Source: Escherichia coli O127:H6 str. E2348/69 (GTDB taxonomy: Bacteria; Pseudomonadota; Gammaproteobacteria; Enterobacterales; Enterobacteriaceae). Taken from it: 64,000 bases of DNA. The position numbers were made by a program. Positions 60,016-64,000 of this stretch are shown here, in pieces. Positions within the stretch are counted from its first letter, which is position 1; each line of letters begins with the position of its first letter. The DNA lies in assembly GCF_000026545.1 (NCBI RefSeq), contig NC_011603.1; one strand, given 5' to 3'.

Positions 60016-63000
60016 TCATTTCAATAAACCGGGCGACCTCAACCATCCCTTCCTGATTTTCCACTTTCCAGCGTTCGGCACGCAGACGACGGGCTTCATT
60101 CTGCATGGTTGTGCTTACCAGACCGGAGATATTGACATCATATGCCTTGAGCAATTGATAGCTGTCGCTGTCAACTGTCACTGTAATACGCTGCTTCATA
60201 GCACACCTCTTTTTGACATACTTCGGGTATGCATATAAGTATATATTATTATGATGCAAAAATCAGCGCGTAAATACACATACTGTTATCTTACTTTTAG
60301 TAAGCCTTATTTATTTTACCTTGCGTTATGTTAACCAATAAAAATCAAAATCTGACTTATAAAAACAAACCGTAATTATCGCATTCCCGTTTCCGTCAGA
60401 TCCGACTTTCATGAATATCACAACTTTCCGGAAGTGTACCACGCTGTGAAAATCATCATATCACTGTTTTCCGCCCCTGCGCGGCGCATCATAGGTCAGG
60501 GAGATGACACAATATATAGTGTCATTAGCAGCTAAATTAAGCACTACATGTTGTGCTGACGGGAGATGGCGCTGTGCGGCGAGAGAGGAAGATCCGTGAC
60601 TGACAGAAATCGGATCTATGAGAGAAGATAATGGTATATTTGCTTATTATGCAATTAAAAATAACTATTATTGCCATATTTGCACTATTGCTATAAATGC
60701 ACTAATAATAAGGTTCTATTGCCAAAAACAATCATCTGGAGATATTTGCCATTCACTCTCATCCATAACCTGTTAAAAGCGGCTCGGGTTCAGATCAATT
60801 ATTTATTAACCGGTGATGGATAAAATGAAACCGGAACGAGATATCCCTAATATAAATGAAATTATGCGTAGCCTTCGGGCATTCATCAGCGACTGAATAA
60901 AGGTATCAAGGAATGTATCCCGTATTTGAGAATGGCTCATGCTGGGTCAAGGTCGATTTTCACCTTCATACCCGTGCAGACAAAGAATTTCGCTATGCCG
61001 GCGAATCCGACAGATATATTCGCGATTACGTCAATGCCCTCAAAGCGGCGGAAGTGAGCGTGGGCGTGATCACCAATCACAATAAATTCGATCCCGGCGA
61101 GTTTAAAGTATTGCGGAAAGCCGCGCGCCGTGAAGGTATGGACCTGCTTCCCGGCGTGGAGCTGTCCGTTAATGATGGCCAGGCCGGCGTGCACACGCTC
61201 GTGGTGTTTGCTGATGAGTGGTTTATCAATCCACAGCAGACGAACCATATTGAAAGTTTCCTTACGGCCACGTTTGCGGGCGTTGATAATTTTGAGAATG
61301 AAAATGCCCGTTCAACAGAAAATATCACACAGACCATCCAGCGCCTTGACCGGTATGAAAGGGATTACTTCATTGTATTTGCTCACGTGGAGGCCCAAAA
61401 CGGGTTATGGGGCGGGCTGAGCCCAGGCCGGATCGGGGAGCTTTTTGATAATGACCTTGTCCGCCGGCGCGTGACGGGATTTCAGAAGGTGATGACCCAC
61501 GACCTGCGGGTCAAAATTAAGGACGTGCTCGGTGAGCGCTATCCTGCCGAAGTCCAGGGATGCGATGCCAAAACGCTGGATCACATTGGTGCCAGAAAAG
61601 TCGCCAGCTATCTGAAGCTGGGGGATTACAGTTTTGAAGCCGTCCGCTTTGCGCTGCAGGATTTTCCGCATCGCGTCAGCGGAGAGAAACCGGCCCTGAC
61701 CCACAGCCATATCCGCCAGATAGCATTCGAGGGCGCCGGTTCGCTCGGTGGAACCGTGGTGAAATTATCTCCAGAACTGAACACCCTGATAGGGATCCGC
61801 GGCAGCGGCAAATCCTCCATCCTTGAAGGGATCCGATATGCCCTGGACATTCCGTTTGGCGAGAAGGCCTCTGACCGCGACTACAAAGAAAATCTGGTCA
61901 GTAATTTACTGAAAAGCGGAGGGAAAATTACCGTTGATGCCGTGTGCCGTCACGGACGGGCCTATCAGATAGTTCGCATTTTCGGTCAGGAGCCGCAGGT
62001 CATTTTTGACGGCCAGGTCCGGCACGGGGTGGCGCTACGGGAAACGGTTCTGCATAAGCCAGTGTATTTTGGCCAGAAAGATCTGTCCAATACCGGTGCC
62101 GGATTTGAACACGATCTGATAGAAAAACTGGTCGGTGAGCGTCTGGCTCCCGTACGAGAGAAAATCCGGCAGCAGAATGCGGTCGTGCTCGACAGGTTAG
62201 TCCAGCTTCGCCGTCTGAAAACATCGGGAGAAGCGCTCTCCGAATGGCAGGCGAAAGAGAAGGATGCGCAGTTCCGCCTGCGCTTCTATGCCCAGCATGG
62301 CATGGAAGAAAAACTGGAGCGTCAGACCACCTTCGGGCGGGATGAGCGCTATCTCAGCAGCAGCACTTCCCTGGCAAGCCGAGCGCTGGACAGTCTGCAG
62401 GACGGAATCAGGGAGACTCTGGACGGGCTGAAACAGGAGCAGAAACATGAGTCAGCACATAACCAGGCGGATATTGATGATTATCGTGAGGGATATGACC
62501 GCTTTACGACTCATCTCAGCTCCCTGAACACCATTGTCGACGGTGCCCGCCAGATCCTAGATGAGCTCAACGTTAAGCAGCAGGCCTTCCTGCAGAAAAA
62601 GCAGGCGCTGACGGAGGAATTTGCCGAAATAGAACGTGGCCTTGCAGAAGAGCTGCGGCTAGCCGGGGTGGAAAAAGCAGATCCCGCCGACTTCCTGAAG
62701 CTGAAAGCCGGGCTGGAAGTTGCGGAACAAAAAATAGCCGAGTTGACCCGGGCTGAAAGCAGCCAGACGTTACTGGAGAAGAGTCTGACAGAAGCGCTAA
62801 ACCGATTGTCTGAACTGTGGGTGGAAGAGTATCAGGAAATTGAAGCCGTGCTGGCTGCCATCAACCAGGCAGATTCGCCCCTGAAGATCGTGCCGTCCTT
62901 TGCGAGCGATAAAAAAGCCATGCTGGCCGTTCTGAAAGAAGCCTGTACTGGCAGCCGGTTGAGGGAAAGTACCTACCAGACCGTGGTTGACAGCTTCAGT

Positions 63001-64000
63001 AACTTTGGCGAGCTCTGGCTGAACAGGGATAAACTCCCCGGGATTATCAATAGCTCTGCGGAGACGTTCAGCATGTATCTGGAGCAGCAGATAGAATCGC
63101 TTATTGTCTGGCAGATCCCGAATACCTACATCATTGAATTCCGGGGCAAACCACTGGAACAACACTCATTGGGTCAACGCGCATCCGCATTAATGCTGTT
63201 TGTCCTGAATCAGCAGGACAATGATGTGGTGATCATCGATCAACCCGAAGACGACCTGGACAATCAGACGATTTATGACGACGTGATTAAAATCATCAGG
63301 GCGATGAAACCCCGCACGCAATTTATCTTTGCCACTCACAATGCCAATATTCCGGTGCTCGGAGATGCAGAAAATGTCTGTGCCTGTGAATATTCAGACG
63401 GAAAGATCCAGATTGTCGGCGGAGGCGTGGATGCCCCTCTTGTACAACAGCACATTATTTCGGTAATGGAAGGAGGGCGGGAAGCCTTCGAGCGACGCAG
63501 GGAAGTTTACGGCTCATGGCTCAGTAAAACCTGATACCATCATGCTTACTGAGCATACAGAAAAAGCCGCAAATGCGGCTTTTTAATTTTCTGATTATAC
63601 CTTTTTTGGTTCTTCGATGGAAAAGAAAGAAATTACACAGGCCTGACATATCCATATGCCAGACATCTTCACATTCAAAGCATATGCATATACTGAGCAT
63701 AGCCATACAGGCCGCCCGGTCAGGGGGAAATAATGAGAACTGTATCCATTTTTAAAAACGGCAATAACCGCGCCATCCATCTGCCCCGCGATTTGGATTT
63801 TGAGCGGGTGAGAGAGCTGGAGATCGTCCGCGAAGGAGACAGCATCATCCTGCGTCCCGTCCAGCCGAACTGGGGCTCATTCGCGCAGCTCGAAAAAGCC
63901 GATCCGGATTTTATGGCGGAGCGCGAGAATGTTGTCAGCGACGAAGGTCGATTTGACCTGTGAACAAAACGTATATGCTCGACACCTGTATCTGCTCGTT

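Follow-up and report, generated by a model that had tools for sequence, protein, structure and literature searches.

Ppl, the only validated relative of the protein described here, was found and tested against phages and restricts T7 (PMC11482910). A review describes it as a single-stranded DNA 3'-5' exonuclease that is inhibited while NTPs are bound and becomes active on meeting 3'-OH ends (PMC12904381), and Xu et al. (2026, Mol Cell), as they are cited, attribute to Ppl the same activity together with the sensing of 3'-OH DNA ends. A second point of reference is the trlR-trlF-trlG operon of Photorhabdus, which causes growth arrest at 36°C (PMC7554251). In that study, the only genetic one on the TrlF family, all explained suppressors of temperature restriction were found in trlG and none in trlF, so that the role of TrlF went unobserved even there (PMC7554251). 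This Photorhabdus study was the one relevant paper on TrlF that our literature search returned; experiments testing a TrlF protein for defence were not found, and two lactococcal plasmidome papers made no mention of a PHP-ATPase.

The trlF gene of pMAR7 and its product

The window, i.e., the whole 64-kb stretch of DNA analysed here (64,000 nucleotides), corresponds to the EPEC plasmid pMAR7, and its gene at 60913-63534 is 100% identical to that of pMAR7 (NC_010862.1). An earlier note on this DNA had drawn attention to an 873-aa ORF at this place, and both its ATG start and its coordinates proved exact. Given its length and its full-length match to a curated model at E 1e-161, the ORF is not a chance feature. 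The gene is not anonymous: RefSeq already names its product 'TrlF family AAA-like ATPase' and the protein passes the curated TrlF family model (NCBIfam NF045780; 540.7 bits for a cut-off of 350 bits, E 1.1e-161), residues 7-867 covering model positions 1-944 of 944. By this profile match, the pMAR7 protein is a full-length member of the TrlF family. In a protein library clustered at 50% identity, 595 cluster representatives were matched at E<1e-30. The features of the locus are as follows.

59674-60199, minus strand: ccdB and ccdA, type II toxin-antitoxin pair of the RepFIA module, left neighbour (pMAR7 RefSeq annotation, ORFs)
60591-60616, no strand: recombination junction at which the F-type resD-ccdBA module on the left meets the trlF module on the right, breakpoint 60601
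60661-60912, plus strand: conserved upstream region, presumed promoter/operator/leader, which travels with the gene
60913-63534, plus strand: trlF coding sequence, solo form without trlG (873 aa, ATG start; WP_000283686.1)
60940-61698, plus strand: PHP metal-dependent phosphoesterase (nuclease-type) domain, aa 10-262 (AF2, Foldseek, ligand conservation)
61708-62097, plus strand: N-terminal lobe of the ABC ATPase, aa 266-395, with Walker A and Q-loop Q388
61792-61815, plus strand: Walker A GIRGSGKS, aa 294-301 (G294, G297 and K300 invariant)
62104-62868, plus strand: all-helical insert, aa 398-652, at the Rad50/SMC coiled-coil position (DSSP on the AF2 model)
62881-63102, plus strand: small alpha/beta region, aa 657-730, between insert and C-lobe (AF2 secondary structure)
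63124-63528, plus strand: C-terminal lobe of the ABC ATPase, aa 738-872, with signature, Walker B, H-loop and C-terminal motif
63226-63261, plus strand: Walker B VVIIDQPEDDLD, aa 772-783 (D776, Q777, P778, E779, D781 and D783 invariant)
63561-63584, plus strand: intrinsic-terminator-like hairpin with T-run, 27 nt after the trlF stop
63733-63963, plus strand: vapB antitoxin gene, right neighbour of trlF (ORF, RefSeq annotation)

Conservation was scored in a 41-sequence alignment of the TrlF family (26-93% identity to the query). The candidate PHP ligands are D15, H17, H19, H56, E83, H94, H158 and D218, and the motifs DFHLHT (D15, H17, H19), ITNHN (H56, N57), GVELS (E83), HTLVVF (H94) and FAHVE (H158) were invariant or nearly so. 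The predicted structure of residues 1-262 (AF2, pLDDT 94.1) found its best Foldseek match in EndoQ (5zb8, E 2.4e-9, TM 0.61), with further matches to RNase AM and the PHP domain of Pol III alpha, and of 22 family members, 17 gave a Pfam PHP match at E<=0.1. The 'histidinol-phosphatase' label carried by GenBank records was rejected, as the fold search placed the PHP domain with nucleases at E 1e-9, against no better than about 1e-3 for histidinol phosphatases. In pMAR7 TrlF, Lys220 stands where the D-x-H motif of PHP domains usually ends in His. Because this residue is Lys in most TrlF proteins (D-A-K), whereas Ppl has D-A-H, TrlF may have a metal site, and with it a chemistry, unlike that of Ppl.

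In the ATPase, invariant positions include the Q-loop G387-Q388, which was absent from the motif list of the earlier note, and H809 of the H-loop FATHN; S752 and G754 of the C-lobe signature SLGQRA (S752-L-G-Q-R) were invariant or nearly so. A conserved motif, MEGGxEAFxxR, closes the C-lobe at aa 852-862, and the peptides DQPEDDLD and MEGGxEAF, the most conserved of TrlF, were used for the genome scan. The whole-protein model (pLDDT 86.9) matches the heads of SMC, MukB, JetC, Rad50, RecN and RecF, being closest to SMC, JetC, Rad50 and RecN, and the TrlF family profile matches the SMC and Rad50 N-lobes in the PDB. Fold, profile and DSSP thus agree on a Rad50-type ABC head with an insert at the coiled-coil position, so that the protein has the TrlF architecture, in which a PHP N-terminus precedes a split Rad50/SMC-like ABC ATPase and the catalytic residues are conserved. 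A scan for cysteines found no CxxC zinc hook and no cysteine in aa 346-677, hence none in the insert. When the PDB was searched by sequence, profile and fold, no relative of the whole TrlF protein was retrieved, and none for Ppl either. Altogether, the profile searches and structure predictions recover both halves proposed in the earlier note, a PHP nuclease-like domain and, interrupted by a helical linker, a complete ABC ATPase of the Rad50/SbcC kind, and every motif that the note lists is present.

Relationship to Ppl, to TrlFG and to other ABC-ATPase systems

The best defence-model match of pMAR7 TrlF in PADLOC is Ppl (PDLC02208), at 122.7 bits, compared with 1787.5 bits for a Ppl-annotated protein. 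Identity with Ppl as an equivalog was rejected, the score against the NCBIfam Ppl model (NF042955) being 159.8 bits for a cut-off of 1000 and the sequence identity 22-31%. The two are nevertheless homologous along their length: hhalign aligned the TrlF profile with the Ppl-annotated protein at a probability of 100% (E 1.5e-46, 799 aligned columns, 22% identity), residues 8-863 of TrlF with residues 2-892 of Ppl, i.e., as colinear single polypeptides of PHP and NTPase. BLASTP gave 27% identity over the PHP domain and Walker A and 31% over the C-lobe (aa 724-864), leaving unaligned the helical insert, which is colinear with that of Ppl only at the profile level. Both are single chains of about 880 aa in which a PHP domain, a Walker A lobe, a helical insert and a lobe with signature, Walker B and H-loop follow in the same order, both have the DQPEDDLD Walker B and a C-terminal MEGGxxAF motif, and both are found on enterobacterial plasmids. 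They differ in that Ppl sits on a long outgroup branch of the family tree and has anti-phage data, whereas the ancestral state of TrlF is a two-gene operon with TrlG. These alignments indicate that TrlF is a distant relative of Ppl, in a sister family rather than an orthologue. The link to Ppl drawn in the earlier note therefore stands as full-length colinear homology and falls as membership.

An overlapping trlG gene lies directly 3' of trlF in 65 of the 73 testable loci (89%), from many phyla, and its product combines a Schlafen/AlbA_2 (SLFN) domain with GHKL (HATPase_c_4). In some loci the pair is nested inside a type I R-M operon, in two different gene orders; these family relatives lie in restriction operons and not in the housekeeping repair operons that the earlier note had considered for close homologues. 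In the window, tblastn with three TrlG proteins gave E>1 everywhere, the downstream gene being vapB, and no match was found to trlR, the gene of a small HTH_73 regulator that lies upstream in Photorhabdus and V. cholerae. With neither trlG nor trlR present, pMAR7 does not carry a TrlFG operon of the temperature restriction locus type. TrlF is normally translationally coupled to TrlG, a partner that the pMAR7 clade has lost. The single-gene form of PHP and ATPase noted earlier is true of pMAR7 but an exception in the family. As the canonical form needs, or at least keeps, TrlG, the solo protein might work differently.

On the family tree, the pMAR7 solo clade is nested within the paired forms and has the Photorhabdus/Vibrio clade as its sister, and a second independent solo clade is present. 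The Photorhabdus TrlF belongs to the same curated family and is 56% identical to that of pMAR7 over the full length, whereas its operon has the trlG and trlR genes that pMAR7 lacks, and the conserved 250-bp leader upstream of the pMAR7 gene is a different one. The pMAR7 clade, which spans 59% to 100% identity and is solo throughout, comprises intact ORFs in Escherichia, Klebsiella, Serratia, Dickeya, Rahnella, Yersinia, Cronobacter and Edwardsiella. Comparison of pMAR7 trlF with its Dickeya, Serratia and Klebsiella orthologues yielded a dN/dS of 0.12-0.13 at a dS of 0.28-0.44; solo trlF is under purifying selection. When the two forms were compared for a possible TrlG docking site, the retention of conserved residues was mildly lower in solo than in TrlG-linked proteins at aa 501-550, 601-650 and 701-750, a weak signal from few columns.

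SbcCD/Mre11-Rad50 resembles TrlF in that a Rad50-type ABC head, divided by a helical insert, goes together with a nuclease of the metal-dependent phosphoesterase type. In TrlF, however, the nuclease is a PHP domain fused in cis and not a calcineurin-like Mre11 subunit, the CxxC zinc hook is missing, and the gene is accessory and mobile with defence genes as neighbours. Membership of Rad50/SbcC was rejected on the fused PHP, the missing hook and scores of 12-24 bits against Rad50 equivalog models with cut-offs of 700-1000. PARIS AriA, Gabija GajA, OLD, Septu PtuA, Lamassu LmuB and Wadjet JetC show weak profile or fold matches to the ATPase lobes (17-34 bits, marginal, against the AriA, GajA and PtuA models) and have in common with TrlF the logic of an ABC/SMC-like sensor coupled to a nuclease, while TrlF lacks a Toprim, HNH or other partner effector. 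Its PHP nuclease is a feature that only the Ppl/TrlF/PDC-M49A group has. OLD and Gabija GajA were discarded (P-loop and C-lobe only, 17-23 bits, no Toprim by Pfam or fold search), as was PARIS AriA (33-34 bits in the C-lobe only, no AriB-like DUF4435/Toprim neighbour).

The trlF cassette in IncF plasmids and defence islands

The gene lies between ccd and vap genes, as the earlier note had placed it; vapB is the last gene before the window ends at 64000, and ccdBA is outside the trlF cassette. Homology of the F plasmid to the window ends at 60601, within the inverted repeat GATCCG-N14-CGGATC, and is followed in F by pifC-pifA, so the remark that trlF does not belong to the F backbone was right. 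Conversely, pUTI89-like plasmids share the DNA from 60601 rightwards, and many IncF plasmids share the window DNA only up to about 60601-60708. In a small sample, made up of 10 plasmids that have the ccdA junction and of pJJ1887-5, in which trlF is not beside ccdA, the slot beside ccdA holds pifC-pifA and a TIR PDC-S35 gene in F, and a CBASS cyclase with a 4TM effector in pBone7IncF. A Shigella plasmid has there trlF and a second pair that matches the CBASS pair of pBone7IncF by size and order, its second gene carrying the annotation S-4TM effector. The slot also takes up cargo unrelated to defence, for instance enterotoxin genes. In pMAR7, trlF occupies the slot where F keeps its phage-exclusion genes pifCA. 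PifA, a KAP-type P-loop NTPase that comes with its own repressor PifC, is a positional analogue only, the proteins being unrelated. The 60601 junction near ccdA appears to be a swap site for IncF immune cargo (PifA, CBASS, TrlF, TIR) and could be considered as a practical place to seek further systems.

The DNA shared with the Dickeya and Serratia chromosomes begins at 60661-60667, and that shared with a Klebsiella plasmid further upstream, at 60374. Within this region, a 17-nt repeat occurs in tandem at 60669-60702, a third copy at 60716 being partial, and the approximately 90 nt directly before the ATG are nearly invariant. A single, weak sigma-70-like site was found at 60719-60746, the count of such sites in the scanned region being no higher than in shuffled sequences. 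A 23-codon mini-ORF (60826-60897) was discarded as a leader peptide since it is frame-shifted in two orthologous leaders, an Rfam search upstream of trlF gave sub-threshold noise only, and RNAalifold on 9 leaders detected no structural covariation (covariation term only -0.78 kcal/mol); we therefore claim neither a leader peptide nor a regulatory RNA. On the other side, the terminator that the earlier note had assigned to the gene was recovered as the terminator-like hairpin with T-run at 63561-63584, inside the DNA shared with the Serratia, Klebsiella and Dickeya copies (to 63600-63691). The adjacency of trlF and vapB is found in pMAR7, pUTI89-like plasmids and the Dickeya chromosome and is absent in the Serratia, Klebsiella, Cronobacter and Edwardsiella copies.

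Of 5426 complete E. coli genomes, 124 carried the gene, 118 of them in intact form; among 72,556 plasmid records, about 145 had it. All its places in E. coli were plasmid-borne (0/128 chromosomal). In other genera, solo trlF adjoins Lamassu (LmuA, LmuC, LmuB) and a TIR PDC-S35 gene in Dickeya, PD-T4-5 and PifA (932 bits; directly upstream, on the chromosome) in Serratia, and Hachiman HamA and PDC-S49 in Yersinia, and in Serratia, Klebsiella, Cronobacter, Edwardsiella and Rahnella the cassette comes without a conserved companion gene. Solo trlF enters defence islands as a mobile single-gene cassette. Since just two records, unannotated Listeria 'phage' entries, hold a full-length homologue (37% identity), trlF was rejected as a phage gene. 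New here are the pairing of trlF with trlG, the loss of trlG by a solo clade under selection, and this one-gene cassette with its place beside ccdA in pMAR7.

Function of solo TrlF

From homology to Ppl, the defence-island neighbours and the IncF slot, we infer a defence function for trlF, and the label of defence candidate given in the earlier note is upheld at that strength; trlF is likely a plasmid-carried immune gene. Its architecture, conserved sites, trlFG and solo-clade context and selection lead to the same reading, and we lean toward an immune nuclease that needs no partner, belongs to the accessory cargo of IncF plasmids and probably works by a Ppl-like mechanism. The PHP N-terminus would be a metal-dependent nuclease, and the ABC head of Rad50/SMC type, together with the long helical insert, would act as a nucleotide-binding, DNA-sensing regulator. 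By analogy with Ppl, nucleotide-bound TrlF would be held inactive at normal NTP levels; a phage or other invading DNA would lift the block by drawing down the nucleotide pool and presenting single-stranded DNA or free DNA ends, and the PHP domain would then degrade DNA and stop the infection. Phage protection, the substrate and polarity of the nuclease and its gating by NTPs are likewise what we infer for TrlF. Counting against this reading are the score below the Ppl cut-off and the helical middle that aligns only at the profile level, and the genomic association is correlative.

During F-type conjugative transfer, the incoming T-strand is single-stranded and carries a free 3'-OH end, the kind of end that Ppl is reported to sense. 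This would suit a weapon between mobile elements, whose nuclease would hit the T-strand of a rival or transforming DNA and protect the resident IncF plasmid, as would the exclusively plasmid-borne state of E. coli trlF, the adjoining replication and maintenance modules and the presence of JetC, from the plasmid-restricting SMC-like complex Wadjet, among the best structural matches of the ATPase. The likeness to JetC is, however, at the level of a generic SMC head (TM 0.2-0.3), the closest chromosomal copies lie in islands of anti-phage systems, and phages were what Ppl was found and tested against, which makes a dedicated anti-plasmid role unlikely. We consider it very unlikely that TrlF serves plasmid housekeeping or repair as a one-chain analogue of SbcCD/Mre11-Rad50, acting on hairpins, stalled forks or multimers and aiding the replication or segregation of large IncF plasmids. 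Although it pairs a Rad50-type head with a phosphoesterase, as SbcCD does, and adjoins the resD resolvase, ccd and par genes and RepFIB, most IncF plasmids do without it, F carries pifCA at the site instead, the cassette also inserts into chromosomal defence islands, the zinc hook is missing, and the operons that house family relatives serve restriction, not repair.

The same neighbourhood could suggest a stabilising or addictive toxic module within a toxin-antitoxin cluster (ccdAB, vapBC, GNAT/DUF1778), harmful to plasmid-free or stressed cells: trlF is flanked by such modules, its adjacency to vapB is kept in the Dickeya chromosome, and the paired form arrests growth in Photorhabdus at 36°C (PMC7554251). 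That arrest, however, needs TrlG, absent from the pMAR7 window, and no conserved second gene goes with the cassette in five genera; an addictive role is thus highly improbable. Toxin-antitoxin modules and defence genes commonly occupy the same variable regions, so the neighbourhood itself cannot separate addiction from defence. Finally, the absence from the 64-kb window of a trlG that most testable loci have could make trlF a functionless orphan, a TrlFG leftover that lost its effector and hitch-hikes. This is scarcely credible, as the selection analysis largely refutes it, all catalytic residues are kept in pMAR7 TrlF, the solo clade is old (to 59% identity) with intact ORFs in eight genera, and a second solo clade arose independently.

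The preferred reading, a self-contained immune nuclease, may be carried further. In its boldest form, an NTP-gated solo TrlF nuclease would sense DNA ends that are single-stranded or carry a free 3'-OH, it would serve IncF plasmids against both phages and rival T-strands, TrlF and TrlFG would constitute a large immune family that spans phyla and is not yet listed in defence catalogues, and the Photorhabdus phenotype would be auto-immunity; as a whole, this is distinctly unlikely. More modestly, the defence reading suggests a mechanistic view of the unexplained temperature-restriction phenotype of Photorhabdus, and the solo and TrlG-linked forms offer a ready-made comparison to learn what is gained from the Schlafen/GHKL partner. 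Should solo TrlF prove to be an active immune nuclease, the one-gene defences would gain a member that is widespread and related to Ppl yet distinct from it. Its carriers would be clinically important IncF virulence and resistance plasmids (EPEC pMAR7, ExPEC pUTI89-like), and this carriage would bear on phage therapy and plasmid ecology.

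PHP domain, ABC head and relationship to Ppl

The trlF gene is a single long open reading frame of 873 codons with an ATG start (60913-63534, + strand), as the earlier note had described, and its N-terminal methionine lies level with the starts of homologues in the family alignment. The gene has a G+C content of 53–56%, compared with about 39% for the spacer before it. By megablast, the window corresponds to the EPEC plasmid pMAR7 (NC_010862.1, IncFIA/FIB/FIC) with 100% identity. Upstream of trlF and beyond the coordinates reported for it, in the extracted pMAR7 region (L001:1-1487), a gadC-like glutamine/GABA antiporter gene and a murI-like glutamate racemase gene adjoin an IS1 element; metabolic genes of this kind are unusual on virulence plasmids.

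Every motif that the earlier note had listed was present, and all were invariant or near-invariant in an alignment of 41 TrlF sequences sharing 26–93% identity. The key positions are as follows.

Positions invariant or nearly so in the 41 TrlF sequences
D15, H17, H19, H56, E83, H94, H158, D218: putative PHP ligands
K300, Q388, S752/G754: Walker A, Q-loop and signature of the ABC ATPase
D776-Q-P-E779, H809: Walker B and H-loop of the ABC ATPase

In 32 of the 41 proteins, pMAR7 TrlF included, the D-x-H motif of the PHP domain ends in Lys instead of His. As read from the sequences, both domains are under purifying selection. The earlier note had proposed profile searches and structure prediction as checks on these domains. 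Pfam matches to the lone sequence were weak (AAA_21, 7.7e-4; SMC_N, 0.003; PHP, 0.15), while 17 of 22 N-terminal domains of the family matched PHP at E ≤ 0.1, the best at 5e-6. The AlphaFold2 model built on the family alignment was confident (pLDDT 86.9, pTM 0.69), and its C-terminal 600 residues resemble the heads of SMC, MukB, Wadjet JetC, Rad50, RecN and RecF (Foldseek against the PDB, E 3e-11 to 1e-6). Residues 1-262, modelled separately (pLDDT 94.1), adopt a predicted PHP fold matching endonuclease Q (5zb8; Foldseek E 2.4e-9, TM 0.61), RNase AM and the PHP domains of Pol III alpha and PolC. The PHP enzymes that this modelled domain resembles act on nucleic acids. Because histidinol-phosphate phosphatases match the PHP model only near 1e-3 (Foldseek, PDB), the older GenBank product name, “histidinol-phosphatase”, is misleading; RefSeq uses “TrlF family AAA-like ATPase” (WP_000283686.1). 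The helical insert (aa 398-652) contains neither a cysteine nor a CxxC hook, and searches of the PDB by sequence, profile or fold returned no whole-protein relative of TrlF, nor of Ppl. One chain combines a nuclease-type PHP domain with a complete nucleotide-binding ABC head.

The TrlF Walker B motif (63226-63261, aa 772-783) reads hhhhDQPEDDLD, with an invariant Gln after the Asp. In ABC ATPases, this position is usually occupied by the catalytic Glu. The invariant Gln hints that the TrlF/Ppl head could be a nucleotide sensor rather than a fast hydrolyser.

Family membership was clear, TrlF matching the NCBIfam model TrlF_fam_ATP (NF045780) end to end with 540.7 bits where 350 are required, and failing the sister models Spaf_1101 (169 against 475) and Ppl (159.8 against 1000). 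The top PADLOC match was Ppl (122.7 bits), which the earlier note had named as a comparable single-gene system; a Ppl-annotated Citrobacter plasmid protein scored 1787 bits on the PADLOC Ppl model. BLASTP aligned TrlF with this protein in the first third, which holds the PHP domain and Walker A (27% identity), and in the C-terminal lobe (31%), and hhalign aligned the TrlF profile with the Ppl sequence over its full length (799 columns, probability 100%, E 1.5e-46). From these alignments and model scores, TrlF and Ppl are judged to be colinear homologues yet distinct families. Both carry the Walker B hhhhDQPEDDLD with its invariant Gln and a C-terminal MEGGxxAF motif, whereas the PHP D-x-H motif is D-A-H in Ppl and mostly ends in Lys in TrlF. 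Ppl acts against T7, and Bas63 gp130 counteracts it (PMC11482910). According to a 2026 review, it is an ssDNA 3'-5' exonuclease in which NTP binding inhibits the PHP and NTPase domains, and its trigger is nucleotide depletion together with 3'-OH ends from phage homing endonucleases (PMC12904381); the primary source is given as Xu et al. (2026, Mol Cell 86:180).

The two-gene family and its partner-less form

The TrlF family is large, with 4919 matches in a 90%-clustered database; after clustering at 50% identity, 595 representatives match at E < 1e-30. Ten distant representatives, 26–31% identical to pMAR7 TrlF, all exceeded the TrlF cut-off and none the Ppl cut-off. The genomic context was scanned with one genome per species, giving 80 trlF loci in many phyla, among them Proteobacteria, Bacteroidota, Firmicutes, Planctomycetota, Spirochaetota and Chloroflexota. 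Among the 73 loci with enough downstream DNA, 65 had a trlG homologue directly downstream of trlF, typically overlapping its stop codon by 3–15 nt, which implies translational coupling. TrlG joins a Schlafen/AlbA_2 domain to a GHKL HATPase_c_4 domain and (e.g., L003:10607-11770 and its equivalents in other extracted loci) matches PADLOC profiles of pAgo-associated modules; a 2026 preprint (SLFN-pAgo) describes a TrlG-type module fused to a defensive Argonaute. The name TrlF derives from the “temperature restriction locus” trlR-trlF-trlG of Photorhabdus, whose growth arrest at 36 °C is relieved by trlG mutations or deletion of the operon; suppressors were never located in trlF, and a biochemical function was not assigned (PMC7554251). 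The likeness of TrlG to pAgo-linked modules suggests that this phenotype reflects the auto-immune activity of a defence effector. No test of TrlF in defence was found in the literature searched.

In at least nine loci, the trlF-trlG pair is nested in a type I restriction-modification operon, in two gene orders.

Gene orders of trlF-trlG within type I restriction-modification operons
hsdM-hsdS-trlF-trlG-hsdR: V. cholerae and relatives
hsdR-trlF-trlG-hsdS-(AAA)-hsdM: IncC plasmid pNDM-1_Dok01 and several Betaproteobacteria

Genes nested in restriction-modification operons are a classic sign of auxiliary defence. The pair on pNDM-1_Dok01 lies within a Tn7-like element.

By comparison with this two-gene form, no homologue of TrlG, TrlR or Hsd was found anywhere in the 64-kb window. 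A neighbour-joining tree of 87 proteins, with Ppl as the outgroup, places the solo clade of enterobacteria (pMAR7, Dickeya, Serratia, Rahnella and Yersinia; 59–100% identity) within the TrlG-linked forms, as sister to the Photorhabdus/Vibrio TrlFG clade, and the solo form appears to have arisen again independently in a second clade and one singleton; the topology of this distance tree, which lacks support values, is provisional. The solo gene shows no decay: compared with its orthologues in Dickeya, Serratia and a Klebsiella plasmid, it has a dN/dS of 0.12–0.13 (dS 0.28–0.44), all catalytic residues are kept, and the copy is full-length or nearly so (at least 80% of the gene) in 118 of the 124 trlF-carrying complete E. 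coli genomes. Conserved columns showed no more than a hint of mild relaxation in solo relative to paired TrlF near aa 501-550, 601-650 and 701-750.

Mobility and the cargo slot beside ccdA

All trlF copies in complete E. coli genomes (124 of 5426) were on plasmids, and about 145 of 72,556 PLSDB records hold a complete or almost complete copy. Divergent members of the family are carried by 540 plasmid records; those of other E. coli and Klebsiella plasmids are far more distant, at about 28–30% identity to pMAR7 TrlF. Such identities indicate that several TrlF lineages were probably recruited by plasmids independently.

DNA common with the Dickeya and Serratia chromosomal copies starts at 60661-60667, about 250 bp before the ATG, and that shared with a Klebsiella plasmid copy further upstream, at 60374; the right-hand limit of the shared DNA is 63600-63691 for all three copies, shortly after a hairpin that bears out the earlier claim of a dedicated terminator. 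Judging by these boundaries, the mobile unit consists of a single gene and the control region belonging to it; the upstream part (about 250 bp, 60661-60912) moves with trlF across genera.

Features of the shared unit
60669-60702: upstream tandem 17-nt repeat, TATTGCCATATTTGCAC / TATTGCTATAAATGCAC
60716: third, partial copy of this repeat
63561-63584: terminator-like hairpin, just inside the end of the shared DNA

The 90-nt leader before trlF is nearly invariant, with weak RNA covariation. A 23-codon mini-ORF upstream of trlF (60826-60897) was discarded, being frame-shifted in two orthologues.

On the chromosomes, trlF lies amid recognised defence systems: its neighbours include Lamassu LmuA/LmuC/LmuB (439, 173 and 572 bits) and TIR PDC-S35 in Dickeya, PD-T4-5 and PifA (932 bits) in Serratia, and Hachiman HamA (322 bits) and PDC-S49 in Yersinia. 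The PifA and TIR PDC-S35 modules of the F slot, plus YuaX, recur beside solo trlF in Serratia and Dickeya (L011:1991-5774 and L002:2137-7626, the respective extracted loci), so that IncF plasmids and the defence islands of enterobacteria appear to draw on one circulating set of immune modules. The Dickeya locus also keeps the pMAR7 trlF-vapB adjacency (L002:10838-11891), with vapB 88% identical and an IS3-family transposase directly after it; this arrangement suggests a plasmid-derived segment captured in the Dickeya chromosome.

In the window, homology to F spans resD-ccdB-ccdA plus 340 bp and ends exactly at 60601, inside a GATCCG-N14-CGGATC inverted repeat (60591-60616). Beyond this point F carries pifC-pifA, in agreement with the earlier view that trlF is not part of the F backbone. 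The window was compared with the extracted loci L016, L098, L103, L104, L105 and L106, and the cargo beyond the junction differs among IncF plasmids.

Cargo beyond the ccdA junction in other IncF plasmids
F: pifC-pifA (PADLOC PifA, 963 bits) and TIR PDC-S35
pBone7IncF: a type I CBASS system (504 bits for the cyclase and 548 for the 4TM effector) followed by hsdR
Shigella IncF plasmid: a trlF copy of 89% identity, followed by two genes whose sizes and order are those of the CBASS pair in pBone7IncF
AR_0015 and TO124: DUF3800, large hypothetical genes and a HEPN nuclease
pTA150: small DNA-binding and hypothetical genes
pLAO103: next to no annotated cargo
2015C-4136CT1: hypothetical gene and IS3 elements
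pRHB38-C15_2: enterotoxin genes

The likeness of the Shigella pair to CBASS is one of size, order and annotation, its second gene being annotated as an S-4TM effector. In pUTI89-like plasmids, a HEC-04/OLD-like ATPase and a PDC-S64-like gene precede trlF. The region beside ccdA appears to be a cargo swap site in IncF plasmids, and it houses the classical phage-exclusion locus of F. trlF occupies this variable slot, where about half of the sampled plasmids carry immune genes; the sample is small, comprising 10 plasmids that have the ccdA junction and one further plasmid, pJJ1887-5, in which trlF lies elsewhere.

Candidate function

The finding of the earlier note is real and its interpretation sound. 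At the level of sequence comparison, TrlF has full-length homology to a validated defence nuclease and immune neighbourhoods, and with moderate confidence we regard it as a defence nuclease. A part in competition between plasmids seems unlikely, and a plasmid housekeeping function is quite improbable. Its place between toxin-antitoxin modules could recall an addiction-type system, a reading more doubtful still, and the idea of a functionless orphan that has merely lost its partner, set beside purifying selection and intact catalytic residues, is very hard to credit; a small share of the probability is assigned to none of these readings.

As a defence nuclease, and by analogy with Ppl, TrlF would be inactive while NTP-bound; nucleotide depletion and/or exposed DNA ends would release it, and the released PHP domain would degrade DNA. 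With an invariant Gln next to the Walker B Asp, the head may serve chiefly to sense nucleotide and not to hydrolyse it quickly. In the paired form, TrlG is plausibly a growth-arresting effector, in keeping with the Photorhabdus trlG mutations, and TrlF its sensor or regulator, in which case solo TrlF must rely on its own nuclease.

Since a RefSeq name exists and the mechanism of the nearest validated relative is published, pMAR7 trlF does not represent a new category. The novelty lies in its position as a partner-less, independently mobile variant of the large, mostly two-gene TrlFG family, a family whose strong defence signatures make defence its candidate function, and in the location of this variant where IncF plasmids appear to exchange immune cargo.
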